Origin: an uncultured Bacillota bacterium
GTDB taxonomy: Bacteria > Bacillota_I > Bacilli_A > RF39 > UBA660
Length of the DNA stretch: 61,292 nucleotides
Reading direction: 5' to 3'
Assembly: GCA_947168485.1 (NCBI GenBank)
Contig: CAMVLZ010000005.1
Coordinates: forward strand, 1 to 61,292
Shown piece after piece: positions 9,089 to 55,137 of this stretch. Positions within the stretch are counted from its first letter, which is position 1. Each line of letters starts with the position of its first letter. The translations under genes were made by a program, and so were the position numbers. A model generated the notes under the pieces. The model ran no database searches and was not told the origin of the DNA. It saw nothing but the letters and a program-made list of their open reading frames with translations.

Positions 9089-10063
9089 TTATCTATTAGT
9101 AACACCAATTAATTTTGCATGAACTACTTTTCTACCTTTATTATCATCAGTACAAGTAGATAAAGTAATAATTTTATCACTACCACTAACAGAAACATTA
9201 TATTTATGTTTACTCTTCTTTTTTAATTTCTTAACAAAAGTATCAAATTCACTATCATCACTAAAAGATACTTGTAAATAATCTACTACAGGAGCACTAT
9301 AATAATTAGAAAATACTTCATAAATATATTTTTCATTATCTTTCAAAATAATAATCTTATGATTACTATTCTTATACCAATTATTAGAAAATATTCTTGC
9401 TATAGTACCAAAAGAAGTACCATTAAGTAAATTATGTCCATAGAATATAGTATTCTTATCTTGTAAAACATTATTTCTATAATCCATAAATACCCATCCA
9501 TTCTTATTATAAGATTTATTAAATGAATGAGATAAATAATAATCATTATCACTACTCTTAACTACAGGATAATTAATATTAGTACCGTCAACAGCAATCC
9601 AAGCAACTGTATTAGAATTAATATTTCTTAATTCATTAAAATTAACATCACTTAGTTTAGTTGATCCAAACTTATAAAAAGAATAATTACCAAGTACTTT
9701 ATCATACTTATCTTCTTTTTTAATCCTATCAGTTTTTTGTTTTTTATCAGTTTTATCATCTACTTTTTCTTCTTTCTCAATAGAAGTAGTATCCTCATCT
9801 AACTTAACAGTCTCTTGAGGAGAATAAACTATTCCAAATATAGTAGTAAAAGCAAATAAATAAATAATAATTAAAAATAATGTTTCAGGTTTACCCTTCT
9901 TATATAAATTATCTATAACATGATCAAACTTATTTCTAAATATTTTATTAAAAATTTTCATAATAAAAATACTAATACTATAAAACCCTTTACTTATAGT
10001 ATTAATTAAAAATAAAAAACCATTCATAGTTGTCTCAAATAAATAAGAAAAAAAGTTTTTCAT
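9089..10063 (-). CDS. srtB: Class B sortase with an extended N-terminal membrane/linker region
   Basis: NTVAWIAVDGTNINYPVV, FMDYRN, IFYGHN (His), ITLSTCT (Cys), and Arg 8 residues after the Cys (NKGRKV). Resembles clostridial and staphylococcal SrtB. Confidence 0.85.
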   Translation of the reverse strand: MKNFFSYLFETTMNGFLFLINTISKGFYSISIFIMKIFNKIFRNKFDHVIDNLYKKGKPETLFLIIIYLFAFTTIFGIVYSPQETVKLDEDTTSIEKEEKVDDKTDKKQKTDRIKKEDKYDKVLGNYSFYKFGSTKLSDVNFNELRNINSNTVAWIAVDGTNINYPVVKSSDNDYYLSHSFNKSYNKNGWVFMDYRNNVLQDKNTIFYGHNLLNGTSFGTIARIFSNNWYKNSNHKIIILKDNEKYIYEVFSNYYSAPVVDYLQVSFSDDSEFDTFVKKLKKKSKHKYNVSVSGSDKIITLSTCTDDNKGRKVVHAKLIGVTNR

Positions 10064-29815: not shown

Positions 29816-29870
29816 ATATCTCACCTATTATAATAATTATATCATATAATAAAATTAAAAAAAGATTATC

Positions 29871-31157
29871 CTATTTAATAGGCATAATCTTTTCTTTTCC
29901 ACCCATATATGGTTGTAATACTTTTGGTATATTGATTGATCCATCTTCATTATAATTGTTCTCTAATACAGCAATCAATCCTCTAGGAGTAGCAACTACT
30001 GTATTATTTAATGTATGTAAGTAATATGTACCATTTTCTCCTTTTTTACGAATACCTAATCTTCTTGCTTGAGCATCTCCTAATGTAGAACAACTTCCTA
30101 CTTCAAAATATTTTTGTTGACGAGGAGACCAAGCTTCTACATCACATGATTTAACTTTTAAATCAGCTAAATCACCAGAGCAACATTCTAATTGTCTAAC
30201 TGGAACATCCATATTTCTAAATAAATCTACAGTTAATTTCCACATCTTTTCATACCATTCCATACTATCTTCAGGTTCACATATAACAATCATTTCTTGC
30301 TTTTCAAATTGATGAACTCTATAAAGTCCTCTCTCTTCTAAACCATGAGAACCTCCTTCTTTTCTAAAGCATGGAGAATAACTTGTCATATGAATTGGAA
30401 GTTCTTCATCTTTAATTATTTGTCCTTTAAACTTACCAATCATTGAATGTTCAGAAGTACCAATTAAATATAAATCTTCATTTTCAATCTTATACATCAT
30501 AGCTTCCATCTCAGGGAAAGACATAACTCCAGTAACTACATCAGAATGAATCATAAATGGAGGAATTGCATAAGTAAATCCTGCATCTATCATAAAATCT
30601 CTAGCATAAGCAATCATAGCTTCATGTAGTCTCGCAATATCTCCCAATAAGAAATAGAATCCTTCTCCTGAAGTTCTACCAGCAGCTTCTTTATCCATTC
30701 CACCAACATTTAAAATAATATCCGCATGATGTGGAATCTCATATTTAGGTACTACTGGATCTCCAAATCTTTCAACTTCTACATTTTCACTATCATCTTT
30801 ACCTATAGGAACAGACTCATCCATTATTTGAGGAATCTTCATCATTATATCTTTAATCTTATTTTGCATTTCAGGTAATTCTTCATCTATTTTAGCTATC
30901 TTTTCATTCATTTTAGCTATTTCTTCTTTAACTTTATCAGCTTCATCTTTTTTACCATCTCTCATTAAAGTACCAATCTCTTTACTTAATTTATTCTTAT
31001 CAGCTTTTAAAGTATCTCCCTCTACCTGCATCTTTCTAGCTTCTTCATCTAATTTCTTTACTTCATCTACTAAAGGTAATTTCTCATCTTGAAATTTCTT
31101 CTTAATATTTTCCTTTACTAAATCTTCATTATCTCTTATTAACTTAATATCAATCAT
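29871..31157 (-). CDS. serS: Seryl-tRNA synthetase
   Basis: N-terminal coiled-coil arm (MIDIKLIRDN...) and class II core motifs (YSPCFRKEGGSHG, TLNNTVVATPR). Confidence 0.97.
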   Translation of the reverse strand: MIDIKLIRDNEDLVKENIKKKFQDEKLPLVDEVKKLDEEARKMQVEGDTLKADKNKLSKEIGTLMRDGKKDEADKVKEEIAKMNEKIAKIDEELPEMQNKIKDIMMKIPQIMDESVPIGKDDSENVEVERFGDPVVPKYEIPHHADIILNVGGMDKEAAGRTSGEGFYFLLGDIARLHEAMIAYARDFMIDAGFTYAIPPFMIHSDVVTGVMSFPEMEAMMYKIENEDLYLIGTSEHSMIGKFKGQIIKDEELPIHMTSYSPCFRKEGGSHGLEERGLYRVHQFEKQEMIVICEPEDSMEWYEKMWKLTVDLFRNMDVPVRQLECCSGDLADLKVKSCDVEAWSPRQQKYFEVGSCSTLGDAQARRLGIRKKGENGTYYLHTLNNTVVATPRGLIAVLENNYNEDGSINIPKVLQPYMGGKEKIMPIK

Positions 31158-31164
31158 AATTTCC

Positions 31165-31355
31165 CTCCTAACAAAAAAAAGAACAGTACAAGGAGCTATA
31201 AAGCGGTACCATCCTTTTATTAACTTAATTCAGATAACGGTCATCCCGGATATTATTATATCTCTATAGGGTAGATAAATAAGTATTTATTATCGTTTAC
31301 ACCAACCACGACTCTCTATAAATAAATAATCTTATTATTAGTCCTAATCATCGAT
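31165..31355 (-). promoter_or_regulatory. T-box riboswitch leader of serS (tRNA-sensing transcription attenuator)
   Basis: Minus-strand RNA contains AGAGAG..GGTTGGTG (stem I), the T-box core GGATGGTACCGC (31201..31214), and a terminator helix AAGGAUGGUAC/GUACUGUUCUU plus U8 just upstream of the SD GGAGGG. A UCU in ..UUAUCUACC.. is a candidate Ser specifier but is unconfirmed. Confidence 0.8.
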
Positions 31356-31362
31356 CAATTAA

Positions 31363-31370
31363 ATTATACA
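31363..31370 (-). promoter_or_regulatory. Extended -10 element (TGTATAAT) of the serS promoter
   Basis: TGTATAAT on the minus strand, upstream of the T-box leader. No clear -35 element. Confidence 0.4.
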
Positions 31371-31374
31371 ACAA

Positions 31375-32076
31375 TTAATTAGAAAAAACAAATTGTTTAT
31401 TACATAGCATCTCTTCATGTCTATCTAAAGATAAATAACTAAATAATTTAACATCACTAGCTTTTAAATCATTATATTTAACTCTATCAAATCCAAATAA
31501 TCCATCAGTAAATGAAACATAAACTTCTGAAATATTATCACCTTTCATATCAAATTCTATATATCCTTGCATAGAATTCTTTAAAAATGGAGATTTTACT
31601 TTACTACCAAATATCTCATCAGATTTATTAACATTAAAATAATAAATTCCCTTAGACGCAGTACTACACTTAACATCAGTTCTATTATAAAAATTAATAA
31701 CTTGAGTAGTCATCTCTTTTACAGTTTTAACATATTCTTCTTTATTAGTTTCATCATAATGTAATAATCTAGGTACAACAAATATAATAAATAATATAAA
31801 TATTACAAATATTACAATAGTTCTAATTATCTTAAAGATTTCACCAGTATTATTATCTTTATTATTACTTTTATTATTTACTCTATTGTTATCTAAATAT
31901 TTTTGATTATAATCTACTCCTCCAACATCATTACTATTATCAGGATTATTATAATTATTTATAATATTTTCTTCTTCAGATGGTTTCTTTTTAAATAAAG
32001 GAAACTTACGTTTAGGCTTATTTTCTAATTCATCATCTCTTATACCATTATTATCATAATCTTTATTAATGAACAT
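31375..32076 (-). CDS. Hypothetical bitopic membrane protein (Asn-rich cytoplasmic N-terminus, one TM, extracellular domain)
   Basis: TM helix IIRTIVIFVIFILFIIFVV. Its C-terminal domain is paralogous to that of the adjacent gene. Confidence 0.5.
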   Translation of the reverse strand: MFINKDYDNNGIRDDELENKPKRKFPLFKKKPSEEENIINNYNNPDNSNDVGGVDYNQKYLDNNRVNNKSNNKDNNTGEIFKIIRTIVIFVIFILFIIFVVPRLLHYDETNKEEYVKTVKEMTTQVINFYNRTDVKCSTASKGIYYFNVNKSDEIFGSKVKSPFLKNSMQGYIEFDMKGDNISEVYVSFTDGLFGFDRVKYNDLKASDVKLFSYLSLDRHEEMLCNKQFVFSN

Positions 32077-32084
32077 CTAATCAC

Positions 32085-32828
32085 CTACCTACAAGAAGTA
32101 CTAATACTAGGAATATTAACTTTATAATAAGGTAACACATCTAATTTCTTTAACTCATCAACATTCTTCTCTCTAATACCAAATGTTCCATCACTTAAAG
32201 AAATCTTATATATATATTTACCATTTTCTTTTGTAACTAAAACATATCCAGTAAAACTATTTCCTAAATATGGAGATACTATATCTAAATTATAATCATT
32301 CTTTAAAGAATTAGAATTAAATTCAAATAAATACTCATCTCCTTTAGTACATTTACTAAAATTATTATTACCATATTTATTCTTTATCGCATTAACTATT
32401 TCTTTAGATTGATCTATATACTTTTGTTGACTAGTAGTAATTAATTTATATCCATATACCACAACTACTATAAATAATATTAAAACTACAGCTCTAGTAA
32501 TTCTATTTCTCATAGTAGCTTTTCTTTCACTATCAGTCATTTCAGCATTTTGAACTTCTTCTCTATACTCATCCATAGATCTATAAAATTTCTTTTTTTC
32601 TTTCTTAGTTTCTTCTTTTAAATTAGTAGTAAAAAATTTACTTTCATGTTCTTTTTTCTTTTTATTTTCTCTTTTAATAATCTTTTGAGCTTTTTTATCA
32701 TATTTAACTAAGAAATCATTATTATTATTATCATAATTAATATATCCACAATGAAAACAAAATCTATCTTTATAATGCATTTCATTACCACACTTAGGAC
32801 ATATTATAACCCCATTATTTTCATCCAT
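32085..32828 (-). CDS. Hypothetical bitopic membrane protein with an N-terminal zinc ribbon
   Basis: CPKCGNEMHYKDRFCFHCG zinc ribbon, a Lys-rich linker, one TM, then an extracellular domain paralogous to 31375..32076. Confidence 0.5.
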   Translation of the reverse strand: MDENNGVIICPKCGNEMHYKDRFCFHCGYINYDNNNNDFLVKYDKKAQKIIKRENKKKKEHESKFFTTNLKEETKKEKKKFYRSMDEYREEVQNAEMTDSERKATMRNRITRAVVLILFIVVVVYGYKLITTSQQKYIDQSKEIVNAIKNKYGNNNFSKCTKGDEYLFEFNSNSLKNDYNLDIVSPYLGNSFTGYVLVTKENGKYIYKISLSDGTFGIREKNVDELKKLDVLPYYKVNIPSISTSCR

Positions 32829-32829
32829 A

Positions 32830-33642
32830 TTATTCCTCCATATACTTCATAAGAACACTTGTTACTACTTCATAACCTTCATCATTTAAATGTAATCCAT
32901 CTTCTGTATATTTCTTATCTAAATAACCTTTATCATCTACTAATTTAGAATACATATCTATATATACTAAACTATTATTCTTACAATAGATCTTTAAAGA
33001 TTCATTTAATCTATTAATAGAATCTAGTTTATTAACTTTCTTATCAATTTTTCTTAAATCATAATTAACTGGATATATAGAAATAACTCTTATAGTCGCA
33101 GCAGGTCTATTCTTCTTAATTTGAGTAATAATAGAAATATAATTATCAAAAATCTTTTGTAAACTATAACCTTTACTAATATCATTAGTACCTATTAATA
33201 TAAATACATCAGAAGGATTATACTTATATACTCTATTATACATATTATCTAAAATATTATTAGTCTTATTACCATTAATACCTGAATTAACTATAATATT
33301 TTTCTTATCAGGATAAAACTTATCTAAATTATATCTATAAGTAAGAGAATCTCCTAAAAACAAATAATTCTTATCAACACTTACATGTTTAATCTTAATA
33401 TCTTCATTAAAATTATTATAATTTATAAAGTAAAATAATAAACCTCCTACTAGTAATGAAGCTATTATTAAAAATATCATATTAATATATTTAGAATTAA
33501 GAATCTTTACAAATATTTTTCCCCTCTTACTATTAATATTATCTTTAATAATTATAGGAGTATTATAAAAATCTTTATTAGTACTTATATTTCTATCAAC
33601 TCTAGTTTGTTTTTTGTTATTTTTAAATTTTGCCATATACAT
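32830..33642 (-). CDS. Membrane-anchored SGNH/GDSL-family hydrolase
   Basis: Blocks FLGDSLT, GINGNKT, LIGTNDI and DGLHLN follow an N-terminal TM. The start could instead be the ATG at 33636. Confidence 0.75.
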   Translation of the reverse strand: MYMAKFKNNKKQTRVDRNISTNKDFYNTPIIIKDNINSKRGKIFVKILNSKYINMIFLIIASLLVGGLLFYFINYNNFNEDIKIKHVSVDKNYLFLGDSLTYRYNLDKFYPDKKNIIVNSGINGNKTNNILDNMYNRVYKYNPSDVFILIGTNDISKGYSLQKIFDNYISIITQIKKNRPAATIRVISIYPVNYDLRKIDKKVNKLDSINRLNESLKIYCKNNSLVYIDMYSKLVDDKGYLDKKYTEDGLHLNDEGYEVVTSVLMKYMEE

Positions 33643-33690
33643 CAGTTCCTCTAAAACATTATACCAAGATATTAAAAAAAAAAGAAGTTT

Positions 33691-34263
33691 TTAATCATAC
33701 TTCTTTTTAAAATAACAATATAATTTATAAAATAAAGTAAAGACAAACCAAATAAGTAATATTAAATTACTAATCTGAACTAAAGATAAAATAGTACTAT
33801 TAGTATATAATTGTTTCATACTATTAAGTTCTATCTCATTAGAAGCACTCAATGTAACAAATAATAAAAATAATAAGTATATTGAACTAAAACATATATA
33901 ATTAAATATCTTTTTAAATCCACTAATCTTTTTATTAAATATAGTATAAATAATCATAATAGATACAAACAACATAATAAAGAAATAAACAATAGTAGAT
34001 GGAAAATATATATATTGCATTATACCCTTTACAGTAGATTTAAAACATAATTTAACATAGTCATTATAACTAACTAATACACCTAATAATAATCCTATAT
34101 ATACACCAATAAACCCTAAATTAATAAATATATTTTTCTTTTTTAAATTAATAATTAATAAAGTGAATAATAAAAGACAAAATATTAATAATTCAATAGT
34201 TACAGCAGATGAAAATATATATTTAAAAATATAACCAAATTTATCAAATATTGTCTCTCTCAT
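33691..34263 (-). CDS. Hypothetical polytopic membrane protein
   Basis: About five hydrophobic helices. No recognisable motif. Confidence 0.45.
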   Translation of the reverse strand: MRETIFDKFGYIFKYIFSSAVTIELLIFCLLLFTLLIINLKKKNIFINLGFIGVYIGLLLGVLVSYNDYVKLCFKSTVKGIMQYIYFPSTIVYFFIMLFVSIMIIYTIFNKKISGFKKIFNYICFSSIYLLFLLFVTLSASNEIELNSMKQLYTNSTILSLVQISNLILLIWFVFTLFYKLYCYFKKKYD

Positions 34264-34277
34264 AAATTCACCCCAAT

Positions 34278-34955
34278 TTAATCTGCTTCACATATATAAA
34301 CAGTTTGTTTTGTATCACTACCCTTAGTACAAGTAATAAGAGTAAGAGTAGTCTTTTTATAATTTCTATATATACTTACATAACCATTCTTAGGAACAGT
34401 ATATATTTTTTTAATAGTATATTTATAAGTATTACCTTTATAATCTATATAAGCAACATCACCTACTTTTAACTTATATAACTTTTCAAAATAAGATATC
34501 CAAGCATCTCCAGAATGAGCAATTAATACTAAATTACCACCCTGAGTAGTAGGCATATTAGATCCTTTTAATAAAGTAACATTATATTGAATATCATTAT
34601 ATCTAGAATCTGTATTATAAAATCCTCTCTTCAAATATATCTTAGGTATACGTAATACTCCCAAATACTTACTATAATCTATAGGAGCATAAGTAACCTT
34701 CTTAGTTTTTTTCTTTTTCTTATCCATAGATACTACTTCATTACTAATAGGAGCACTAACCTCTTCTACTTTAGTAGTATCAGAAAAACTAATTAACATA
34801 TCAGAATATATTTCATCTTTTAAAGATAATAAACTATTCCATGATATAGCAATAAATCCTATAAAGATAAGTAAAGAGCCAAATAACAATATCTGGCTCT
34901 TTTTAATATTCTTTATTTTATTATTGATATTGTTTTTGATTTTTGATATTAACAT
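34278..34955 (-). CDS. Sortase-family transpeptidase (atypical: no Arg after the catalytic Cys)
   Basis: N-terminal TM, LVLIAHSG (His) and TLTLITC (Cys). The C-terminus after the Cys reads TKGSDTKQTVYICEAD. Its start overlaps the upstream adhesin gene by 35 nt. Confidence 0.75.
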   Translation of the reverse strand: MLISKIKNNINNKIKNIKKSQILLFGSLLIFIGFIAISWNSLLSLKDEIYSDMLISFSDTTKVEEVSAPISNEVVSMDKKKKKTKKVTYAPIDYSKYLGVLRIPKIYLKRGFYNTDSRYNDIQYNVTLLKGSNMPTTQGGNLVLIAHSGDAWISYFEKLYKLKVGDVAYIDYKGNTYKYTIKKIYTVPKNGYVSIYRNYKKTTLTLITCTKGSDTKQTVYICEAD

Positions 34956-36183
34956 ATAATATACCTAATCCAGATAATAATACAATCATACCAACAATAT
35001 ACATAATTGAAGAAGCATTGCTAGCTGTATCTGGTGTACGAGTTATTGTAAATGGTACTCCAGGATTTTTCATCTTAGCAACCTTATCAACAGTAGTTAC
35101 TCTTTGAGCTCCAGCAGCTTTATAGAAGTAACCTGTATATACTTCGAATGCTGCTTTTATAGATGCTGTAAAGTTAACAGTTCCAGTTACCTTATCAGCA
35201 GGAACATATAAATAGAATTGTTGATATTTAGAATAACTAACTTTAGTTAAATCTTTAATTTCTTCTTCTTTTCCATTAGCATTAATACCATATACTTTAG
35301 TACCAGTAGGAACATTATTTAAAACAATAGAATAATTATCATCAATATCAGAAATTAATCCAGATGTTCCAATCTTAACAGTAACCTTATCAGATTTTAG
35401 ATAATTATTACTAGTTAATACAAATTTATCACTTGATTTAGTAATAGTAGCATTTAAAACATCAGATTTATTATGATTTTGAATAGCTTTTGTTAATATA
35501 GCATCTAAACCAGTTTGTTTATAAAATGATGTAGATGAAGTAATATTTCCAAGAGTATTTAAATCAGCATCATTAACTTGTAAAGCATTAATATTAGTTA
35601 AAGCATTAATATTAGAATCAATATAGATATTTGGTACAGGAGGTTCATCATCACCATCAAAAACTGATTTTGAATTTGCTGCTCCAGTAGAACCTAAATA
35701 CATCCAAATAGCAGTTTGTCCTAACCAAGACTTAACAAAAGATTTTGCTTGATCTGCAGTTACTGAACCACTAGGTGTAACAGTACCTACATCTAAGTTT
35801 TCAATCTTAGTTAATAAGTAAATAAATCCTTCATCAGTAATTTCTCCATCACGAGATAATTCAGCTGGTGTATATCCCATTGCACTTTCTACACAATAAA
35901 CAGGATGTGATATACCTTGTGCAGAATATGGTTCAACTGAAAAGTTTTCTATACCCATACTAGCAGCTGGTGCTGTTGGTTTAATTACATGAGTTGGAGC
36001 CAAAGTAGTGATCTTAGTAGGTAAAGTATCAACAGTTGGTAATGAGTAAGTAGTTCCACTCATACTAACAAATAAAATTGATACAATAGCTATAAAAGCA
36101 ACTCCAAAAGATAATCCAACAGAAACACTTAAATGATTATTTTTTTTCTTTTTTTGATTTTCTTCAATATATATTTTCTCCAT
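34921..36183 (-). CDS. Surface adhesin with a putative internal-thioester (TED/TQXA-type) domain and an atypical TPDTA sorting signal
   Basis: N-terminal signal/anchor, YCVE (Cys97, codon 35893..35895) and GQTAIW (Gln156, codon 35716..35718). TPDTA at 35023..35037 is followed by a hydrophobic helix and a basic tail (NIKNQK). Confidence 0.65.
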   Translation of the reverse strand: MEKIYIEENQKKKKNNHLSVSVGLSFGVAFIAIVSILFVSMSGTTYSLPTVDTLPTKITTLAPTHVIKPTAPAASMGIENFSVEPYSAQGISHPVYCVESAMGYTPAELSRDGEITDEGFIYLLTKIENLDVGTVTPSGSVTADQAKSFVKSWLGQTAIWMYLGSTGAANSKSVFDGDDEPPVPNIYIDSNINALTNINALQVNDADLNTLGNITSSTSFYKQTGLDAILTKAIQNHNKSDVLNATITKSSDKFVLTSNNYLKSDKVTVKIGTSGLISDIDDNYSIVLNNVPTGTKVYGINANGKEEEIKDLTKVSYSKYQQFYLYVPADKVTGTVNFTASIKAAFEVYTGYFYKAAGAQRVTTVDKVAKMKNPGVPFTITRTPDTASNASSIMYIVGMIVLLSGLGILYVNIKNQKQYQ

Positions 36184-40489: not shown

Positions 40490-42442
40490 CTATGTACCAG
40501 GTATAGGAACATATTTCTTTTCTGGTCCACTTGGACATACAAAGTTGAAATCTGATGCTCTATAAATGTCTCCTTTAGAATTTATACATAAATGATAATA
40601 TGCAGTAGTATGATAATGTCCAGCAGTACATGTCCATCCATAAGTACCATGTATTGAAGAACTACGATGCATACAATTAGCTTTTAATTTTTTTATAGTC
40701 TTTTTCCCTAAATAAATTCTAGTATAATTGCCTGCAGCATCTAAAATATGAGCATAGAATTTATGTTTACCAGAAGAATATTTCTTAGTCTTCTTATAAC
40801 TATATGATTTTTTATTTTTAATTTTTATACCCTTTTTTCTAATAGTTTTCATAGATGTCTTTTTTGTTTCATTAACATATACCCTATAAATACCACTATA
40901 AGTATCTTTTACTTTAAATTTAATAGTAAGTTTTTTAATATTTTTACTACTACCAGATATCTTAGCACTCTTTTTTACATATGTAGGATCAGTTAAATCA
41001 ATCTTATATGGACCATATGCATATTTTTTTCCACATAACAATGTCGTATTTTTATCAGTTGCTTTTCTTCTACCTCTTACCCATACAGCAAAGTAATGTA
41101 TTCCAGAAGTAGTAAATGGTTTTTTAATAACTCTACCACTAGTCGAATTCCAAGTTTTATTAATAAATGTCTTATTACCTATTTTTCTAAAATGTCCTTT
41201 GTTTTTCTTTTTTCTTAATTTTCTTGCCAATGTTTTACCTTTTTTGTACTTACCAGGTGTTTTTTCATAATAACCATCAGTTCCTACAGTAAGAGTATAT
41301 TTTATAGTTAATTTTTTATTTAACCAACCAGTTTGCTTCTTAGTAATTGTTGGACAACCAAATACAGCTGTTGGAATAGGAGGATCAGGATCAGTTACAT
41401 CACCTTGAGAAGTAATAGTTTCTTCATCCTTCTCTACAGCAGGAACATATATAGGACACGTTGCATTACGATTAGAATCATATTTATCTCTAATAGTTAC
41501 ATTTTTAGTTTCAGCCTTATCTTTAGCAGCAAATTCTCCAACATAAACATCACTATCACAACCATTAACACTAACACATGTAAATGAATAATGAAGTATA
41601 TCATTATCATCTAATTTAGTTTTTACATCTTTACAGCTTGCTTTTTCACCAACAGCCGTAATAGACATAGATTTTTCTCCAGTCCATACTCTACCTTCGC
41701 TGTCTACAGCTCTTAAGAACACCTTTAAATTAGAACTATTATTATCAGTAAATCTAGTTATATCACTTCTAACATTATATCTAGCAACATTAATAGATCC
41801 ATGTTTTTCAACTAAATTAATTTCACCTTTATAAATAGTATATGAATAATCTACTATTCTTAATTTAGAATTTGCTGTTAAAGCATCAGTTTCTATATTC
41901 ATTCTAATAATTGCAATTCTTTTTCCACCCTCAATAATTCCTTCTGGTTCAAATTCAATAGGAGCTCGTTCAGTTTCAGTTAATTTAGGTTCTTTCCTAT
42001 TAACACACCAAAGATGAGCAGTATAATGAACTTTATCAGTACCTCTTCGTACACGTACAAATGTATATTGACTCTTTTTAGCTTCTAATTCTTCAGGTCT
42101 CAAATGTTTTTCATCATATTCAGAAATAGTAGGTTTTGTTCCAATACAAGTTTCTTTATTAGCATCTTTAATCTCAGTAATATATTTATTCTTAACCAAA
42201 TTATCCATAGGAATATCTACAGCTTCTCCTACTTTTTTAGGTGTTGATTTAGTATTAGATAAATATGATTTAGCTGCAATAACAAGTTGTTTCTTTTGAG
42301 TATCATAATATCTTTCTTTAGAATTTTTAATATATGTAGAAACAGCAGGTATTGCTACCAACATAAGTATTCCAAGTATTACAACAGAACCAAGTAATTC
42401 AACCATTGTAAATCCTTTTTCTAGATTTTTTTGATTATTCAT
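40490..42442 (-). CDS. Giant modular type IV pilin-like protein (prepilin N-terminus, pilin head, Ig-like modules, Lys-rich module, Cys/His C-terminal cassette)
   Basis: Class III signal NLEKG|FTMVELLGSVVILGILMLVAIP with Glu at +5. Start set at the ATG at 42442 (MNNQKN). Confidence 0.8.
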   Translation of the reverse strand: MNNQKNLEKGFTMVELLGSVVILGILMLVAIPAVSTYIKNSKERYYDTQKKQLVIAAKSYLSNTKSTPKKVGEAVDIPMDNLVKNKYITEIKDANKETCIGTKPTISEYDEKHLRPEELEAKKSQYTFVRVRRGTDKVHYTAHLWCVNRKEPKLTETERAPIEFEPEGIIEGGKRIAIIRMNIETDALTANSKLRIVDYSYTIYKGEINLVEKHGSINVARYNVRSDITRFTDNNSSNLKVFLRAVDSEGRVWTGEKSMSITAVGEKASCKDVKTKLDDNDILHYSFTCVSVNGCDSDVYVGEFAAKDKAETKNVTIRDKYDSNRNATCPIYVPAVEKDEETITSQGDVTDPDPPIPTAVFGCPTITKKQTGWLNKKLTIKYTLTVGTDGYYEKTPGKYKKGKTLARKLRKKKNKGHFRKIGNKTFINKTWNSTSGRVIKKPFTTSGIHYFAVWVRGRRKATDKNTTLLCGKKYAYGPYKIDLTDPTYVKKSAKISGSSKNIKKLTIKFKVKDTYSGIYRVYVNETKKTSMKTIRKKGIKIKNKKSYSYKKTKKYSSGKHKFYAHILDAAGNYTRIYLGKKTIKKLKANCMHRSSSIHGTYGWTCTAGHYHTTAYYHLCINSKGDIYRASDFNFVCPSGPEKKYVPIPGT

Positions 42443-42496
42443 AATTCTCACACCCTTATATTTTTTACCTTATAAATATATGATATCACATATATC

Positions 42497-42522
42497 AAAA
42501 AAACTACATAAAAATGTAGTTT
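42497..42522 (-). terminator. Rho-independent terminator
   Basis: Stem AAACTACAT/ATGTAGTTT followed by a T-run on the minus strand. Confidence 0.6.
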
Positions 42523-42533
42523 AAAACATCAAT

Positions 42534-42944
42534 TTAAGAAACACGTAAGACAAAGTCTTTAGTATTCATTAATTTTTTCTCAGTAGTTTGATATTCAAAA
42601 AAATCTTTTCCAAAACCACTAAATTTATCAAATTGCATTTCATATGTTTTTTTATCACTACCAAAATCAAATATAAATTCTACCTTTGGTGAAACTTCAT
42701 CACTACTTTTATTTTCAACAGTTCCAGAAAATATAAACATACCTGTATCTAAAGATTCAACTATTTTTAAGTCTTTAACACAAAAATCATTATCACAATG
42801 TTCTTTAGAAAGAGTCTTATTTTGTAATACCTTCATTTCTCCTGAACCTTCATTAGAATCATTTAGATAAAAAAATATCGCTAAACCACCCAAAATAAAA
42901 GCAATTACAACTAAACCAATAATTATTACATATCTTTTATTCAT
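42534..42944 (-). CDS. Small N-terminally anchored membrane protein (paralogue of 43041..43448)
   Basis: 136 aa, one TM, conserved HCDNDFCVKDLKIV and FFEYQTT..LMNT.D..LR.S shared with its neighbour. Confidence 0.6.
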   Translation of the reverse strand: MNKRYVIIIGLVVIAFILGGLAIFFYLNDSNEGSGEMKVLQNKTLSKEHCDNDFCVKDLKIVESLDTGMFIFSGTVENKSSDEVSPKVEFIFDFGSDKKTYEMQFDKFSGFGKDFFEYQTTEKKLMNTKDFVLRVS

Positions 42945-42998
42945 ATAGCCTCCTAATCATTCAACCTACCATCTATATTAATAATACCACAAAAAGTT

Positions 42999-43028
42999 AA
43001 AAAACTACACATATAAAAATGTGTAGTT
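42999..43028 (-). terminator. Rho-independent terminator (paralogous to the one at 42497)
   Basis: Stem AACTACAC/GTGTAGTT followed by a T-run on the minus strand. Confidence 0.55.
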
Positions 43029-43040
43029 ATAATTAATTTA

Positions 43041-43448
43041 TTAAGATAATCTTAGTGCATAATCCTCAGTATTCATTAAATTATCATCTGTAGTTTGATA
43101 TTCAAAGAATTGTTTATCAAATCCTTCAATAGATTGAAATTCCATTTTATAAACTCTCTTCTTATCACCTACATCAAATATAAACTCTACATCAGGTTCA
43201 ATAGCCTCATCTGTTTTATTCTCTATATAACCAGAAAATACAACCATATCAGCATTTAATGCTTTAACTATTTTTAAATTATTAAAACAAATATTCTTTT
43301 CACAATGTTCTTTTGAAACCATCTTATTCCTTAATAATTTTACTTGATCCATAGGAACATCTGATTTATTAAAATAGAAATATAATCCAGTACAACCACC
43401 TATGATAACTGCGATAACTAAGATAATTACAATAATCTTCTTTTTCAT
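43041..43448 (-). CDS. Small N-terminally anchored membrane protein (paralogue of 42534..42944)
   Basis: 135 aa, one TM. SD GGGAGGA lies upstream, 15 nt after the stop of the 650-aa pilin-like gene, so the two genes are probably co-transcribed. Confidence 0.6.
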   Translation of the reverse strand: MKKKIIVIILVIAVIIGGCTGLYFYFNKSDVPMDQVKLLRNKMVSKEHCEKNICFNNLKIVKALNADMVVFSGYIENKTDEAIEPDVEFIFDVGDKKRVYKMEFQSIEGFDKQFFEYQTTDDNLMNTEDYALRLS

Positions 43449-43463
43449 ATTTTCCTCCCAATA

Positions 43464-45416
43464 CTACCAACCAGAAATTGGTTTATATTTTTTCTCTGGA
43501 GCTGTAGGACATACATAGTTAAAGTCACTAGCTCTATATACTTTTCCACTTGATGAAACACATAAATGGTAATATGCCTGTAAATGTGAATGCCCACCAG
43601 TACATACCCAAGAAGAAGTACCATGCTTAGAAGCACTACGATAGTTACAACTTGCACTATATTTAGGTATTTTTTTACTACCAATTTTATGTTTCGTATA
43701 ATTACCAACTCTATCTACAACATGTACATAGAAAGTATGTTTTTTAGAAGAATATTTACTAGTCTTCTTATATGTATAAGATGACTTATTCTTAACAGTT
43801 TTTCCTTTCTTCTTAACAGTTGCTGGTTTTAAAGTTTTACTAGATTCATTAACATATACAGCAGCAATTCCACTATGAGCATCTTTAACTTTAACCTTAA
43901 CAGTTAATTGCTTATAATTACTCTTAGTAGAAGATACACTACCACTTACAAACTTAGGTGCAGTTACATCAACTTTATATGGACCATAAGCATAAGTAGG
44001 ATCACATAATTTAGTTGTAACTGTTCCATTCTTTGTAGTCTTCCATTTAACTCTAACACCAAAATAGTATGTACCAGATTTTGTATATTTTTTAGTATAT
44101 GAATGTTTAGTTTTACTATTCCAAGGAATAGAAGTAAAAGTAGTATCTTTTTTTAATTTAACTTTTTTAGAATGATCATCTCTACGAGTTCTACTCCATC
44201 CACTAGATGCCTTAGGAACTAATCTAAAAGCATATGTAGCTTCTGATAAAGAATAACCAACATTAATAGAACCTTTAGTCCAACCTTGAGAAAGAGGTTT
44301 TACTGATGGACAACCGGTTTTAGGTGGTGTAGGTGTAGGTGTATTAGTACTTGGAGTTGGTGTTTCATCCAAAACAGCTGGAGGTACTTTAAGGTAACAT
44401 GTATAATTATACTTAGAATCAACTTTATCTTCCATTTGTACTGGAAGATCATATTCTCTATTTAAAGTAGCTTTATATGATCCAGTATATACATCACTTA
44501 CACATCCATTAGGACTTTCACATATAAATGAATAATAAAACATATTATCATCTTCATTAAATGATGTAACTTTTAAATTATCAGGACAAACAGCATGACC
44601 ACTAATTGAATCTGGAACAAAATTCATTTCTCCAGTAAATATTCTACCATCACTAGCAACAGCTCTTAAATGAGCAGTCAATGTAACACCATCTTTATCA
44701 ACATATCTAGTAATATCATGTTTAGCACTATAATTTTTCTCATTTATAGCACCACTCTTCTCAACTAAATTTACATTTCCTTTATAAATATTATAAGTAT
44801 AATCAACTATCCTTAAACTAGGATTATTAACTAAATCACCAGGTTTTAAAGCCATAGTAATAGTAGCAACTCTTCTACCATCTATAACATTACCACTAGC
44901 ATTAAAAGTAAGATCTAAACTATTAACTATTGGTAATTCAGAATCATTATTATAATTAACACAATATAAATGAGCAATATACTCTACTTTTTTAGAAGTT
45001 TTAGTTACTCTTACAAAAGTATATTGATTTTTTAATTTTTTTAATTCCTCTTTTTCTTCTTTAGATAAATTAGGTTTATCATAAGCAGAAATATCTGGTT
45101 GAGTTCCAACACAAGTCTGTTTATTAGCATCTTTAATTTCAGTAATATATTTATTTCTAACTAATTCATCCATAGATATATCAAGAGAATCGCCAACTCT
45201 TTTTGGAGTCTTTTTAGAATTAGATAAATAAGACTTAGCAGCTATAACAAGTTGTTTCTTTTGAGTTTCATAATACCTATCTTTAGAAGTTTTAATATAC
45301 TTATTAACAAAAGGTATAGCTACCATCATAAGTATTCCAAGTATAACAACAGAACCAAGTAATTCAACCATCGTAAAAGCTTTATTTTGTTTTTCTTTTT
45401 TACTATTTTTTTTCAT
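43464..45416 (-). CDS. Giant modular type IV pilin-like protein (paralogue of 40490..42442)
   Basis: Class III signal KQNKA|FTMVELLGSVVILGILMMVAIP (Ala at -1, Glu at +5). Collinear with its paralogue along the whole length. SD AGGAG upstream. Confidence 0.8.
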   Translation of the reverse strand: MKKNSKKEKQNKAFTMVELLGSVVILGILMMVAIPFVNKYIKTSKDRYYETQKKQLVIAAKSYLSNSKKTPKRVGDSLDISMDELVRNKYITEIKDANKQTCVGTQPDISAYDKPNLSKEEKEELKKLKNQYTFVRVTKTSKKVEYIAHLYCVNYNNDSELPIVNSLDLTFNASGNVIDGRRVATITMALKPGDLVNNPSLRIVDYTYNIYKGNVNLVEKSGAINEKNYSAKHDITRYVDKDGVTLTAHLRAVASDGRIFTGEMNFVPDSISGHAVCPDNLKVTSFNEDDNMFYYSFICESPNGCVSDVYTGSYKATLNREYDLPVQMEDKVDSKYNYTCYLKVPPAVLDETPTPSTNTPTPTPPKTGCPSVKPLSQGWTKGSINVGYSLSEATYAFRLVPKASSGWSRTRRDDHSKKVKLKKDTTFTSIPWNSKTKHSYTKKYTKSGTYYFGVRVKWKTTKNGTVTTKLCDPTYAYGPYKVDVTAPKFVSGSVSSTKSNYKQLTVKVKVKDAHSGIAAVYVNESSKTLKPATVKKKGKTVKNKSSYTYKKTSKYSSKKHTFYVHVVDRVGNYTKHKIGSKKIPKYSASCNYRSASKHGTSSWVCTGGHSHLQAYYHLCVSSSGKVYRASDFNYVCPTAPEKKYKPISGW

Positions 45417-50341: not shown

Positions 50342-52282
50342 TTAATATCTATCATTTCCAAGTATACTTTGAGCATCCTCAAGTATTTTCGCAAGATTAT
50401 TGCTACCTTCAACTTGACTTCTTAAATTAGATAATTCTTCAGTTTGAGAATTAATAATTCTTTCTTTATCTCTAACTCTATCTTCTAAACTATCCATTTG
50501 AGCTTTTAATCTATCAATTTGATCTTCATAATTTTGAATAGATGATCTAATTCTATCTCTATCTTCTTTAGCTCTATCTACTACTTTTCTATTTAAATCA
50601 GTTAATTCTTTAACTTGATTTCTATATTCATCTAATTCATTCATTTGATTCTTATTAGCTTCAATTAATCTAGTTATAGTATTTGCTGCAGTATCCATAA
50701 TACTTCCTCCAGTATTACTTCTAGGAGCAGAATAACTATAAGAATCATTATAATTAGATTTAATATCTAAATTCTTAACAGTATCTCTTCTAGTTAAATC
50801 ACTTAAGAAATCATCAAAATTATCTTTTCTCTCTTTTCTTTCTATTCTTTCTTCTCTTCTATTCATAACACTATCTAAATCTCCAAATAAATCTTCATTT
50901 TCATCATTAGATGCAAATTTATGATCAAAATTAACTTCATCTAATAAATTATCATCTTCTATTTTTTCTACTTTAGATTCTTCTTCCTCATCTTCAACAA
51001 CATTAAATTTATTATAATCTAATGAAGGTATAGAAATAGGTTCTTCTTCGATAGTATCTGTTTTTACTTCACTAAATGGTAAATCGAAATCATTTTCTTC
51101 AACTTCTTCTTCTTTAGGAGTAAATGGTACTGAAATCATTTCTTCTAAACCTGCATATGCTGGAGAAGGAACTGAAATCATCTCTTCAGGATTATAACTT
51201 TCTTCAGCAACTGGTACTTCTGGAACAACAACTTCATTTTGTTCTTGTACAGGTACTGAAATAACATCAGCTAAGTCTTCTGTAGACTCTTGTGCCACAG
51301 GTACTTCTGGTACTTGAGGAACAACTTCTTCTTGAGCAACCGGTACTTCTGGAACAACAACTTCACTTTGTTCTTGTACAGGTACTGAAATAACATCAGC
51401 TAACTCTTCTGTAGATTCTTGTGCTACAGGAGGTACTACAGGTACATCTGGAGCAATTGCTTCTTGAGCAACTGGTACTTGAGGCACTGGAATATCAGCA
51501 GGAGCAACAGTATCAGTTTGAGCAACAGGTGCTGCTTCAGATAATGTCTCAGTAGTAGCATCTGCACTAACAGCAGGAACTTGTTCACCATTCATAGCAT
51601 TATCTATTACAGTCTTATCAACATCAACATCATTAACATCAATATCAGTGAATCCAGCATTAATTGGAACTTCACCATTAGGTACATTAGTAGTATCATT
51701 TAATGTCATAGTAGCTAATGAGAACTTATCTAATGCACTTTCTTTAGTATTATCACTTAAGAATATAGTATCAGAATTCTTATTTATAGCAATAAAACTA
51801 TAATACTTATCATTAACTAAATTCTTACCATCTAAATCAAATAAACTTGCTTCACTAAATTGATCATTAAATAGAAATCTACCATCAGTTCCCATTTCAG
51901 AAAAAACTTTATCTTTAACCAATGCAGTAGTACTAACTAACTTAGTAGCAGCAAGTGGATCTTTTCTAGTTTCACATGCTTCAATAACACAAGGAGATAC
52001 TGGTGTTGATTTTTCTACTAATAAAATATCTTTAGTAACTAACTTAATATTTTTATTCTCACAAGGTATTACAATATTCCCTTCAGCATCAATAACACCA
52101 ACATTAGAATGAACAACTGAAGAATCTATTGCCTCAACTAATGTAGAAGTAACTATAATATTATTATTAGACAACTTACTGTCATTCAAAAAGTAGAATT
52201 GACGGCCATCATCCGTAATCCCATAAGTACAAATAATATCGCTACGATCTTTATATTTTACTAACCCCTTTTGAATTTTCAT
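50342..52282 (-). CDS. Hypothetical protein: globular N-terminal domain, Pro/Val/Glu-rich tandem repeats, C-terminal coiled coil
   Basis: 646-aa ORF with no signal peptide or TM. Internal repeat is STEELADVISVPVQEQSEVVVPEVPVAQE. Confidence 0.55.
   Translation of the reverse strand: MKIQKGLVKYKDRSDIICTYGITDDGRQFYFLNDSKLSNNNIIVTSTLVEAIDSSVVHSNVGVIDAEGNIVIPCENKNIKLVTKDILLVEKSTPVSPCVIEACETRKDPLAATKLVSTTALVKDKVFSEMGTDGRFLFNDQFSEASLFDLDGKNLVNDKYYSFIAINKNSDTIFLSDNTKESALDKFSLATMTLNDTTNVPNGEVPINAGFTDIDVNDVDVDKTVIDNAMNGEQVPAVSADATTETLSEAAPVAQTDTVAPADIPVPQVPVAQEAIAPDVPVVPPVAQESTEELADVISVPVQEQSEVVVPEVPVAQEEVVPQVPEVPVAQESTEDLADVISVPVQEQNEVVVPEVPVAEESYNPEEMISVPSPAYAGLEEMISVPFTPKEEEVEENDFDLPFSEVKTDTIEEEPISIPSLDYNKFNVVEDEEEESKVEKIEDDNLLDEVNFDHKFASNDENEDLFGDLDSVMNRREERIERKERKDNFDDFLSDLTRRDTVKNLDIKSNYNDSYSYSAPRSNTGGSIMDTAANTITRLIEANKNQMNELDEYRNQVKELTDLNRKVVDRAKEDRDRIRSSIQNYEDQIDRLKAQMDSLEDRVRDKERIINSQTEELSNLRSQVEGSNNLAKILEDAQSILGNDRY
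51213..51430 (-). repeat. Tandem direct repeat with a 129-nt period (1.7 copies, near-identical) inside 50342..52282
   Basis: ggtacttctggaacaacaacttca...tgtgc[c/t]acagg occurs at 51213 and again at 51342. Confidence 0.8.
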
Positions 52283-52386
52283 ATCAACACCACCTAATTA
52301 TTCTACACTTATCATATTTATTTTATCATAAGAAAAAGCAATAAGCAATGATAAAAATAAATATTTTTTTTACATTTTTTTACATT

Positions 52387-52426
52387 AAAAAAAATGAAAA
52401 ATCTATAGTATAAAACTATAGATTTT
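52387..52426 (-). terminator. Rho-independent terminator after the repeat-module ORF
   Basis: 12-bp stem AAAATCTATAGT/ACTATAGATTTT followed by a T-rich tail on the minus strand. Confidence 0.6.
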
Positions 52427-52437
52427 ATTGATTTTTT

Positions 52438-54408
52438 TTAATTCCATTCTGCATATAATTTAACAGTAATATCACTATGTTTAAATTCATTCTTTCTATT
52501 TATTTCATTAGCAAAGGCTTCAACTGTAGAAAAAGTAGTATTTTCTGAAATCTTTTTAGAAGCCGTCGAACTACCAACATGCCATTTTCCAGTAGCAGAA
52601 TGATTAGTATATCTCATAAACAAATTCCAGTGAACCCCATCGGCACTATGACCAGAACTATAATCTCTCAATCCCTTACTAGAGAATCCATCAGAAGTAC
52701 GAACAGCCCCTGCACTCCTAAATACAAGGCCAGATCTATCACCAGTACAACCATCATAATTACTTGATCTGCTACATCCATCTCTATACTCTCGTGGAAT
52801 CGATAATGGACAAGCCTGATCAGCTGAAGCACTCAAATGACCACCGTTAGTATAATACTCTAAATATAATCTATTTTCATCCCAGTTTACATATAAAGTT
52901 TTACTTTTATTACCTTTATCCAAGTCATCGCATATTTTTTCAGTCTTAAGATTGCCATTTATTTGTGTATAAAATTTTCCGTTATTTCTCCAAGCTTTAG
53001 CAGCAGAATCAACATGATACCAATCCTTAGAAGCACTAAAATGTCCAGATGTTGCATCTTTCAAATCACAATAACTTCCATAGTGACAAGTTTGAGTTGT
53101 TGCATTCCTATAAGCTCCAAATTCTCCACCATTAGGATCATATGTGATAGTACATACATTACCAATCCAATTAACTTTCATAGTCTTTGATACATTCCCA
53201 GTTTTCAAATCATCTCCACATAAACTAAGAGCTGTATAAGAACTTCCAATTTGAGTATAAGTACTAGTTCCATCTGTCCAAGCATTAGAAGCATCAATAT
53301 AATATCCTGCTTTTCTTGCTTTATAATGTCCAGAAGCATCTCTCAAATTACAAGAACTATTATAATTACAAGTTTGTTTTTTATCACTACTATTATTGTG
53401 CTCTCCAAAGCTTCCACCGTTAGCATCAAAATTCAAAGTACACACATTAGTATGCCAATTTACATATAAAGTTTTAGCGCTATTGTCATCACCTAAATTA
53501 CTACAAATATCCTCAGCTTTATATGTATTATTAACTTGAGTATATGTAGTAGATCCATTTTTCCATGCATTACCACTTTCTACATGATATCCTATTTTTG
53601 AAGAATTAAATCCAGAACTTGTAGCATTCCTTAAATTACAAGTTTCTCCATAATTACATTTTTGTACAGTTTTATCCGTATCACTATTAAAACTTCCACC
53701 ATTAGCATTATATGTGATAGTACAAACATTAGCACTCCATTGTGCAACTAAAGTAACATCATTTGTCGCCACTGTATCTTTATCAACAGGTTCTGAGCCA
53801 ACTTTCCAACCACTAAAAGTATACCCATCTCTTTCAGGTTTACACAATGTTCCCCATTTAGAACCATGCGTTTGTTTCTTAGTTTTATCACTACATCCTC
53901 TTCCACCATTATCATTATATCTAAGAGTATAAGTATTAATTTCCCAATTAATATACAAATCAACAGTATGATCAGTTTTACGAACATTATTATAAAAATC
54001 CAAATCTGTATAATCAAAATTTTGATTATATGAAGCTCCTGTACCATCAGGTTTTGTATTCCATTCTTTTTTATCAACAGGATGATATCCAGTTTTACCA
54101 ACATTTAACCAATCAGGATTATTACAATTTAATAAACCAGTTGATCCCAAACTACCCCTATATGGAATTCTATGTATGTACAAATTATTATCACCACTAT
54201 GTACAACATTTCCACTATTATCTAAATAATAATGATTACCATTAATTAATTTACCACCATTCGCATGCATCTTTATTAATACATGACCAACATAGTATTC
54301 TACTTTATATTTCCAATTATCATTTCGACTTGTTTTATTATTATCTACATCCTCTATAGTACCATCTAACTCTAATGTATATATAGTATTATCAGTTAAA
54401 TTATCCAT
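52438..54408 (-). CDS. Listeria-Bacteroides-repeat (Flg_new-like) module ORF. The open frame actually extends to 54666 and is in frame with the upstream pilin gene.
   Basis: Contains YTLRYNDNGG...RDGYTFSGWKVG and three Cys-rich repeats of about 95 aa (NVCTITYNANGGSF...LYVNW). No signal peptide, and no SD before the ATG at 54408. See the first finding. Confidence 0.6.
   Translation of the reverse strand: MDNLTDNTIYTLELDGTIEDVDNNKTSRNDNWKYKVEYYVGHVLIKMHANGGKLINGNHYYLDNSGNVVHSGDNNLYIHRIPYRGSLGSTGLLNCNNPDWLNVGKTGYHPVDKKEWNTKPDGTGASYNQNFDYTDLDFYNNVRKTDHTVDLYINWEINTYTLRYNDNGGRGCSDKTKKQTHGSKWGTLCKPERDGYTFSGWKVGSEPVDKDTVATNDVTLVAQWSANVCTITYNANGGSFNSDTDKTVQKCNYGETCNLRNATSSGFNSSKIGYHVESGNAWKNGSTTYTQVNNTYKAEDICSNLGDDNSAKTLYVNWHTNVCTLNFDANGGSFGEHNNSSDKKQTCNYNSSCNLRDASGHYKARKAGYYIDASNAWTDGTSTYTQIGSSYTALSLCGDDLKTGNVSKTMKVNWIGNVCTITYDPNGGEFGAYRNATTQTCHYGSYCDLKDATSGHFSASKDWYHVDSAAKAWRNNGKFYTQINGNLKTEKICDDLDKGNKSKTLYVNWDENRLYLEYYTNGGHLSASADQACPLSIPREYRDGCSRSSNYDGCTGDRSGLVFRSAGAVRTSDGFSSKGLRDYSSGHSADGVHWNLFMRYTNHSATGKWHVGSSTASKKISENTTFSTVEAFANEINRKNEFKHSDITVKLYAEWN
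52866..53736 (-). repeat. Three tandem Cys-rich repeat units of about 95 aa in the module ORF
   Basis: Units begin ANVCTITYNANGGSF, TNVCTLNFDANGGSF and GNVCTITYDPNGGEF, and each ends ..(L/M)(Y/K)VNW. Boundaries are approximate. Confidence 0.7.
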
Positions 54409-54666
54409 ATTAGGAGGATTAGTAACACCTTTAGTCTTAGTAGGTTCATAATTCTTATTATTAAAATTAATAAAACCAGAATATCCATTAATAGGTTTAC
54501 CATTCTTTTTCCATTGATAACTTACTGTTTGATTTGCTTTTAATCCTACTCCTACATCAGTAATAGTAACTTTTAAATTAGGTTGTTCACCAACATAATA
54601 GTAAGGAAAACCAAAACCACTAATATCTTTAATAGTTAGAACAGGTCCCTTACCATCTTCTAATTC

Positions 54667-54669
54667 TCA
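54667..54669 (-). other. In-frame TGA separating the pilin head from the downstream 742-codon open frame
   Basis: Minus strand reads ...AAT GAA TTA AAA CAA TGA GAA TTA GAA GAT GGT AAG..., all in the same frame. Confidence 0.9.
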
Positions 54670-55086
54670 TTGTTTTAATTCATTTGGCTTTTTTCCAGAT
54701 CCATAAACAATCTTATTATTTTCTCTACAAGTAACATAAGGATCATAATTATAATTTCCTTTTTTATTTCTTCTAACATAAATAAAAGTATCTTGTCTTC
54801 CACAATCTGTATTTCTTAATTGAATATCATCAATTAAATCTTTTTCTTTTAAATCCGCATAAGTAACTATAGCACAACCAGTATTGGTAGATCCAAACAT
54901 ATCTTCACTATAAGCATCAGTATATGCTTTACTAGCCATACTAATTGCTTTTTCATAAGCAACAAATTTTTTATCACGATTAGCAGCCTGAATATATTTA
55001 ACAGATGGTATAGCTAAAATCATTATAATACCCATTATCGCAATTGCAACAACTAATTCAATCATTGTAAAACCTTTATTCTTCAT
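54667..55086 (-). CDS. Type IV pilin-like protein (139 aa as terminated by TGA)
   Basis: Class III signal MKNKG|FTMIELVVAIAIMGIIMILAIP with Glu at +5. The pilin head carries a Cys pair (CAIV...C, DC...VTC) and is homologous to the heads of the 650-aa paralogues. Confidence 0.85.
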   Translation of the reverse strand: MKNKGFTMIELVVAIAIMGIIMILAIPSVKYIQAANRDKKFVAYEKAISMASKAYTDAYSEDMFGSTNTGCAIVTYADLKEKDLIDDIQLRNTDCGRQDTFIYVRRNKKGNYNYDPYVTCRENNKIVYGSGKKPNELKQ

Positions 55087-55109: not shown

Positions 55110-55137
55110 ATTATACCATCTACATATGAATAATCAA
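55110..55137 (-). promoter_or_regulatory. Candidate sigma-A promoter of the pilin gene
   Basis: TTGATT (55137..55132), 16-nt spacer, TATAAT (55115..55110), about 24 nt upstream of the ATG. Confidence 0.4.

Follow-up and report, generated by a model that had tools for sequence, protein, structure and literature searches.

Does a UGA codon inside a bacterial pilin gene set the proportion of two products, or has it simply disrupted the gene? The question is raised by an element on the minus strand (52438..55086) of contig CAMVLZ010000005.1 from an uncultured Bacillota bacterium (assembly GCA_947168485.1, positions 1–61,292); the window is this whole stretch of 61,292 nt. Here, a 139-codon open reading frame (ORF) encoding a type IV pilin head ends at a TGA, after which the same frame runs on through a long module region. 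An earlier note on this DNA favored programmed or leaky read-through and listed a very recent nonsense mutation and a sequencing or assembly error as further options. In the two other assemblies of the species, this position is occupied by the sense codon TGT (Cys), a finding that by the note's own reasoning speaks against read-through. A recent nonsense mutation fits all the data, with a change that is derived on the window branch and accompanied by no second lesion. Here, we propose that a modular type IV pilin adhesin gene has probably been hit by a nonsense substitution that is very recent and confined to this lineage, which would make the gene a loss-of-function allele and not a recoding device.

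Layout of the interrupted pilin gene

The locus contains the following elements, given in the direction of transcription.

55110..55137, minus strand: promoter-like TTGATT-16-(TG)TATAAT, a consensus match only (10/12 positions plus an extended -10 TG)
54670..55086, minus strand: pilin module of 139 codons with class III signal peptide, alpha-1 helix, and small beta head
54667..54669, minus strand: in-frame TGA, codon 140, which is TGT (Cys) in both strain-level orthologues
54597..54657, minus strand: RNA hairpin predicted from 12 nt downstream of the TGA (-20.1 kcal/mol, z = -2.2 versus shuffles)
52441..54666, minus strand: 742 open codons for grafted extracellular modules, which match the orthologues P0001 and P0122 (residues 141-882) at 97% identity
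54406..54408, minus strand: first in-frame ATG after the TGA, codon 227, the start of a 656-aa ORF (P0121) in the public annotation
53740..53931, minus strand: Flg_new / InlB B-repeat (Listeria-Bacteroides repeat), codons 386-449, Pfam PF09479 E = 8.9e-11
52879..53730, minus strand: three tandem Cys-rich repeats of ~95 aa each, read from the translation
52386..52421, minus strand: AT-rich palindrome CTATAG-N7-CTATAG followed by a T-run, read from the sequence

A Shine-Dalgarno-like AGAGG lies between the promoter-like site and the start, 7 nt before ATG 55086. The encoded N-terminus (MKNKG/FTMIELVV...) is a canonical prepilin N-terminus with the class III signal peptide of type IV pilins. The leader MKNKG, which precedes FTMIELVVAIAIMG, is basic and ends in Gly, and it is followed by a hydrophobic alpha-1 start with Glu at mature position 5. 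The Pfam N_methyl family was matched above its cutoff (E = 3.9e-8), and NCBIfam TIGR02532 scored 26.8 bits on the head against a cutoff of 16.3. Solved pilins gave weak sequence matches that covered the N-terminus alone. The helix on a small beta sheet, the other hallmark of a type IV pilin, was found in the AlphaFold2 (AF2) model of P0001, in which a helix (residues 8-64) is followed by strands (residues 70-128), with a predicted local distance difference test (pLDDT) value of ~80-90 from residue 40. The 139-codon head carries Cys71, Cys95, and Cys120, and it ends as ...AAT GAA TTA AAA CAA TGA (54669..54667).

Beyond the TGA, the frame stays open for 742 codons up to the TAA at 52440..52438. 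Both the ORF and the open run had been described in the earlier note and were found as described, and the judgment that chance would hardly produce such a run is borne out by a probability of p ~3e-32 at the composition of the minus strand. It was also right that the first 86 codons after the TGA contain no in-frame ATG, GTG, or TTG and that ATG 54408 has no Shine-Dalgarno sequence before it (the preceding sequence is ...AATCCTCCTAAT). The encoded modules are, in order, beta-sandwich domains, the Flg_new repeat, the three Cys-rich repeats, and a C-terminal domain. The two kinds of repeats had been noticed from the letters alone; the Pfam match listed above and a Foldseek match to the InlB B-repeat (probability 0.98-0.99) identify the first, and each repeat of the second kind begins with NVCT[IL]x[YF][ND][AP]NGG. 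A fold search with the whole model against the PDB returned generic immunoglobulin-like and InlB B-repeat matches only. The pLDDT of the P0001 model exceeds 80 for residues ~40-455. In this model, the last strands of the head (120-128) and a short helix (134-137) come just before residue 140, and the first beta-sandwich domain begins at residue 149 (149-265, pLDDT >90).

The palindrome at 52386..52421 was not called by a G+C-based terminator scan, but its sequence makes it the likely transcript end of a single pilin transcription unit. No comparable terminator signal is present after the TGA. At this locus, a single transcription unit encodes a modular type IV pilin.

Modular type IV pilins are a known and widespread class (Raynaud et al. 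2021, PMC8179133). PilB (von Willebrand factor A module) and PilC (lectin module) of Streptococcus sanguinis have a class III signal peptide, a small pilin module, and bulky ligand-binding modules grafted after a short linker (PMC8179133). The gene described here shares this organization, and it also comes from a monoderm host (Bacilli). Pilins of the PilB/PilC type are expected to be minor pilins located at the tip, where they act as adhesins. The architecture of P0001 and P0122, which combine N_methyl and Flg_new in one 882-aa ORF, exactly matches this layout. The polypeptide encoded in the window is broken at codon 140 and represents a disrupted member of the class. It differs from PilB and PilC in the grafted parts, which are beta-sandwich domains, one InlB-type B-repeat (Flg_new), the three Cys-rich repeats, and an unassigned domain at the C-terminus, and in being interrupted at the codon of the last cysteine of the head. 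Another difference is that the window ORFs scanned included no pilus machinery gene (prepilin peptidase, assembly ATPase, or platform). Within the known modular pilin class, the gene is a new and as yet unnamed member.

The public annotation (NCBI/ENA) does not show one disrupted gene at this locus but two proteins, one of 139 aa and one of 656 aa that starts at ATG 54408. These two ORFs are the parts of one split modular pilin adhesin gene, and they merit a disrupted-gene flag or a re-check.

Codon 140 in other strains and in the pilin family

A search with the conceptual fusion of both parts retrieved P0001, a protein of 882 aa that is 97% identical over the full length. Its 90% cluster also contains P0122 (882 aa) and P0121, which is the 656-aa ORF annotated by the depositors of the window's own contig. 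P0001 and P0122 are encoded on two contigs of the same species, obtained in separate sequencing runs.

L001 (encoding P0001), run SRR15660238: 3,706 nt, 98.7% nucleotide identity to the window, no indels
L023 (encoding P0122), run SRR28204442: 3,525 nt, 98.4% nucleotide identity to the window, no indels

Each contig carries one uninterrupted 882-codon gene. Alignment of orthologous loci, a comparison already put forward in the earlier note, gave a sense codon in place of the TGA in both strains, with no frameshifts or indels: codon 140 is TGT in L001 and L023 and TGA in the window, a single T-to-A transversion. A more distant homologue, P0003, which served as the outgroup, has Cys at this position too, and the TGA therefore arose on the window branch. 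Of the 16 codon differences private to the window allele, three are synonymous, 12 are missense, and one is the nonsense change. Comparison with L001 and L023 detected no second stop and no frameshift, and missense and synonymous changes stand in a similar ratio on the window branch (12:3) and in the intact L001 allele (11:2). Since no decay following inactivation is visible, the change is either spurious or of very recent origin. Nonsense polymorphisms and nascent pseudogenes show this pattern, in which one lineage has acquired a premature stop and the ORF is intact in its close relatives and in the outgroup.

In an alignment of 32 family members, Cys71 and Cys140 are invariant (Cys140 in 32/32), and Cys95 and Cys120 are conserved in at least 90%. 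Cys140 starts the motif C-x-[LI]-E-D-G-x-G-P, which is present in every head-type relative inspected. Judging from this alignment, the TGA replaces the last cysteine of the head and not a linker residue. The earlier note had placed the TGA about 20 residues after the last head cysteine, at the head/module junction; the spacing is correct, but the picture of a stop in a linker has to be given up. The four conserved cysteines would imply two disulfides, and their conservation suggests that Cys120 pairs with Cys140.

The 139-aa head was used for a phmmer search against 1.84 billion representatives, which yielded 2106 matches, and the best 150 of these were inspected. Among these 150, no protein ends just before Cys140 except the window's own product (P0123), a singleton cluster that occurs on a single contig among ~15 billion proteins. 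About a dozen relatives are short (130-165 aa). Those inspected retain the cysteine and end 1-5 residues after Cys140; in P0154, the ending ...GCT TGT TCT TAA is a genuine terminator. Thus searches of homologues, of clusters, and of JGI patterns gave no evidence for conservation or recurrence of a stop at this position, or for its occurrence in another sample. The JGI metagenome contigs were scanned for exact patterns in which the variable base was N, and neither allele was found. Look-ups with a neighboring gene gave four further contigs of the species, all of which break off before the TGA, no more than ~40 nt into the pilin gene. A scan of genome contigs gave distant relatives only, which are metagenome-assembled genomes (MAGs) of uncultured Bacilli from goat, rabbit, and deer guts, and relatives of the gene are almost all from MAGs of uncultured gut Bacilli.

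Stand-alone short pilins with the four-Cys head are represented by P0143, P0154, P0205, P0246, and P0250 and by the locus L024 292..717. The family with this head seems to include short as well as modular pilins, the domain boundary directly following the last cysteine. Modular pilins with this head and InlB-type B-repeats make up a large, little-described family in uncultured gut Bacilli.

Explanations for the TGA codon

The proposed course of events is as follows. The locus is one gene, which joins a prepilin leader, the alpha-1 helix, and a head with four cysteines to extracellular modules of the adhesin type (~740 residues). One T-to-A transversion would have changed the invariant Cys140 codon of this genome from TGT to TGA. 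Translation would then stop at codon 139 and release a head that may still be processed as a prepilin but lacks its last cysteine, and hence one disulfide partner. The adhesin modules would essentially not be made, apart from background near-cognate read-through of the UGA. Such read-through would insert mostly Trp and rarely Cys, and Cys alone would restore the wild-type protein. A product started at ATG 54408 would have neither leader nor pilin module and would stay in the cytoplasm. The allele would accordingly be a nascent pseudogene or a strain polymorphism. Of the 7,938 possible single-base changes in the gene, 439 (5.5%) create a stop; in a gene this AT-rich, a nonsense event is thus mutationally unremarkable. 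In-frame stops are common as polymorphisms in bacteria (Belinky et al. 2021, PMC7918605), and the window case resembles them in having a single derived nonsense change, an otherwise intact gene, and intact alleles in sister strains. It differs from them in nothing substantial, and it is a singleton. Whether ordinary nonsense polymorphism, pseudogenization event, or artefact, the TGA belongs to an already known kind of event. As a candidate for recoding it is of little importance, being a private one-base change at an invariant cysteine codon.

Four points weigh against a recent nonsense mutation. First, the 742 downstream codons bear no second lesion, which is how a maintained read-through gene would look; however, 98.7% identity leaves too little time for decay under either reading. 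Second, the base after the stop is G, which favored read-through in Escherichia coli reporters (PMC11126739). Third, the hairpin that starts 12 nt past the TGA is among the two most stable ones predicted for the gene. Fourth, a genuine mutation and a consensus error are not separable from assembled sequence alone.

The last point leads to a less likely but by no means negligible explanation, a sequencing or assembly artefact. The organism would in fact have TGT, and the A would be an error or the call of a minor variant from a mixed-strain metagenome bin. The TGA allele is known from one contig only, a metagenome-assembled NCBI/ENA record, whereas both other assemblies of the species have TGT, and a one-base difference with no further damage is what such an error would leave. 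On the other hand, a short-read consensus of normal depth seldom retains a substitution error. With 15 further private codon differences, the window allele represents a strain of its own rather than a copy of L001 or L023. The local sequence also lacks features that favor errors: neither a tandem DNA repeat nor a homopolymer, which might cause slippage or phase variation, was found at the TGA site.

Functional leaky read-through of the UGA, kept by selection and yielding mostly a short head pilin with a few per cent of full-length adhesin pilin, is improbable. In E. coli, UGA is the leakiest stop, a G at +4 raises its read-through, and Trp and, less often, Cys are inserted (PMC11126739). The intact downstream frame and the stable hairpin 12 nt downstream would suit such a function, as would the observation that the natural short pilins of the family end at almost the same point. 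However, the stop is not conserved among orthologues, with TGT in L001 and L023 and Cys in all 32 homologues. It removes an invariant cysteine that the most commonly inserted residue, Trp, would not restore. The configuration was found in no other family member, either among the best 150 of the 2106 matches or in the cluster search among ~15 billion proteins.

The hairpin itself also fails to behave as a conserved 3' stimulatory structure. Its region ranks 11/857 among the 80-nt windows of the gene, which is a striking coincidence. Its sequence is identical in the strains with TGT, and L001 shows no difference at all from the window between codons 131 and 350, so the structure existed before the stop. 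The equivalent region of the homologue P0003 has a folding energy of -10.8 kcal/mol, which is average for the P0003 gene, and the hairpin is not conserved there. Because it is identical in the TGT alleles and not conserved in P0003, the hairpin downstream of the TGA is regarded as probably incidental. The other most stable local structure of the 2.65-kb gene lies around codons 46-48. A conserved recoding element was considered for the hairpin and rejected, as it is strong in this species, weak in P0003, and the same in the TGT alleles.

It is very doubtful that the TGA allele is maintained at all, with near-cognate or selenocysteine (Sec) decoding of UGA140 supplying a small full-length fraction on top of a majority of head-only pilin, possibly aided by the hairpin. 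If true, it would be a stoichiometry device in a bacterial pilus comparable to the A1 protein of phage Q-beta. In Q-beta, A1 is a coat protein extended by read-through past a UGA, and the stop is conserved and required. The window gene resembles this system in its formal layout, namely a short structural protein, a UGA, and a long in-frame extension. In contrast to Q-beta, the closest relatives lack its stop, which takes the place of an invariant structural residue. Both leaky read-through and Sec decoding are contradicted by the non-conserved stop; what speaks for them is the alignment of the UGA with Cys and a non-conserved hairpin.

The existence of two separate functional genes, with the downstream module initiated independently, for example at ATG 54408, is highly unlikely. 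This is how the depositors annotated the locus, with P0121 as the 656-aa ORF, but no Shine-Dalgarno sequence precedes this ATG, and the first 86 codons offer no start codon. The product would begin inside the beta-sandwich domain of residues 149-265 and would have no leader in spite of its Cys-rich extracellular repeats. All relatives are fused.

Decoding of UGA140 as Sec, in a Sec/Cys pair with the orthologues, is more improbable still. A UGA that aligns with an invariant Cys, with conserved coding sequence on both sides, is the classic signature by which selenoproteins are found, and the window gene shares it with bacterial selenoproteins that have Cys homologues. The hairpin after the UGA has the apical loop AGAUA with G in the second position. 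In contrast to known selenoprotein genes, no selenocysteine insertion sequence (SECIS) was recognized by Rfam, as a scan of 54300..54800 with E up to 10 matched neither SECIS nor any other family. The apical loop is ~38 nt from the UGA, which lies at or beyond the limit of the usual bacterial SECIS spacing. As described above, the Cys alleles have the same hairpin, and P0003 does not conserve it. The UGA is a singleton that does not recur in other taxa, and among the matches inspected, no other species has a Sec form. A Sec machinery gene and tRNA-Sec are absent from the 61-kb window, which contains no tRNA gene of any kind. The residue would be an extracellular disulfide cysteine and not a redox-active site, and we know of no precedent for Sec at such a position in a pilin.

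Genome-wide reassignment of UGA (genetic code 4 or 25), under which the gene would simply be intact, has a negligible probability: the genome is very AT-rich (~25% G+C) and from a Bacilli lineage with Mollicutes-like relatives, but the orthologues have Cys and not Trp or Gly at the position, ~60 long ORFs are uninterrupted under the standard code, and TGA ends at least six long ORFs with complete Pfam domains (Fmt, RlmN-like, PP2C, and sulfatase among them), whose read-through would fuse unrelated neighboring genes. Because TGA terminates these domain-complete ORFs, the standard genetic code applies. An alternative code was considered as a candidate and is effectively refuted, TGA being a genuine terminator of several window genes. 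Among the genes of the window, an internal TGA within a conserved coding region occurs only in this one.

Strain variation and other genes of the window

Strain differences in the pilin gene cluster in codons 391-425 (Flg_new repeat) and 470-498 (first Cys-rich repeat). The missense:synonymous counts on the three branches leading to the window, L001, and L023 alleles are 12:3, 11:2, and 17:11. These missense-rich, clustered differences suggest diversifying selection or gene conversion among the repeats. The strain variation of this pilin family is a more rewarding topic than the stop codon.

In another species (L025 306..3713), the gene of the homologous pilin P0003 (649 aa) adjoins a rotamase (PrsA-like) gene and a HIT gene, as in the window. 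P0003 sits on the opposite side of the rotamase/HIT pair compared with the window, and the neighborhood is thus partly conserved.

The window has a G+C content of ~25% and is part of a Gram-positive chromosome, encoding a PASTA kinase, sortases, a Cna_B protein, a suf operon, SerRS, and PriA. Two further modular pilins of 650 aa each are encoded at 40490..42442 and 43464..45416 (minus strand), and they are 49% identical to each other. The earlier note had taken them for paralogues carrying the same head as the interrupted gene. This does not hold, as the shared part is the N-terminal alpha-1 segment only (37% identity over 52 aa). Their C-terminal modules received no Pfam assignment except a weak match to DUF7743. 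Paralogous proteins of ~135 aa with a transmembrane anchor are encoded next to the two pilins (42534..42944 and 43041..43448), and the region 40490..45416 looks like a tandem duplication of a two-gene cassette.

A cluster of sortase-dependent surface proteins occupies 24581..36183 and 9089..10063 (both on the minus strand). Its members are a 1747-aa protein with five Cna_B domains, a sortase (34278..34955), a second sortase (9089..10063), and a 420-aa protein with a C-terminal transmembrane segment preceded by a sorting-signal-like tail. Immediately downstream of the interrupted pilin gene, 50342..52282 (minus strand) encodes a 646-aa protein with Pro/Val/Glu-rich tandem repeats (VPEVPVAQE...) and a C-terminal coiled coil; its only match is a weak one to the Cbp1 collagen-binding adhesin family.

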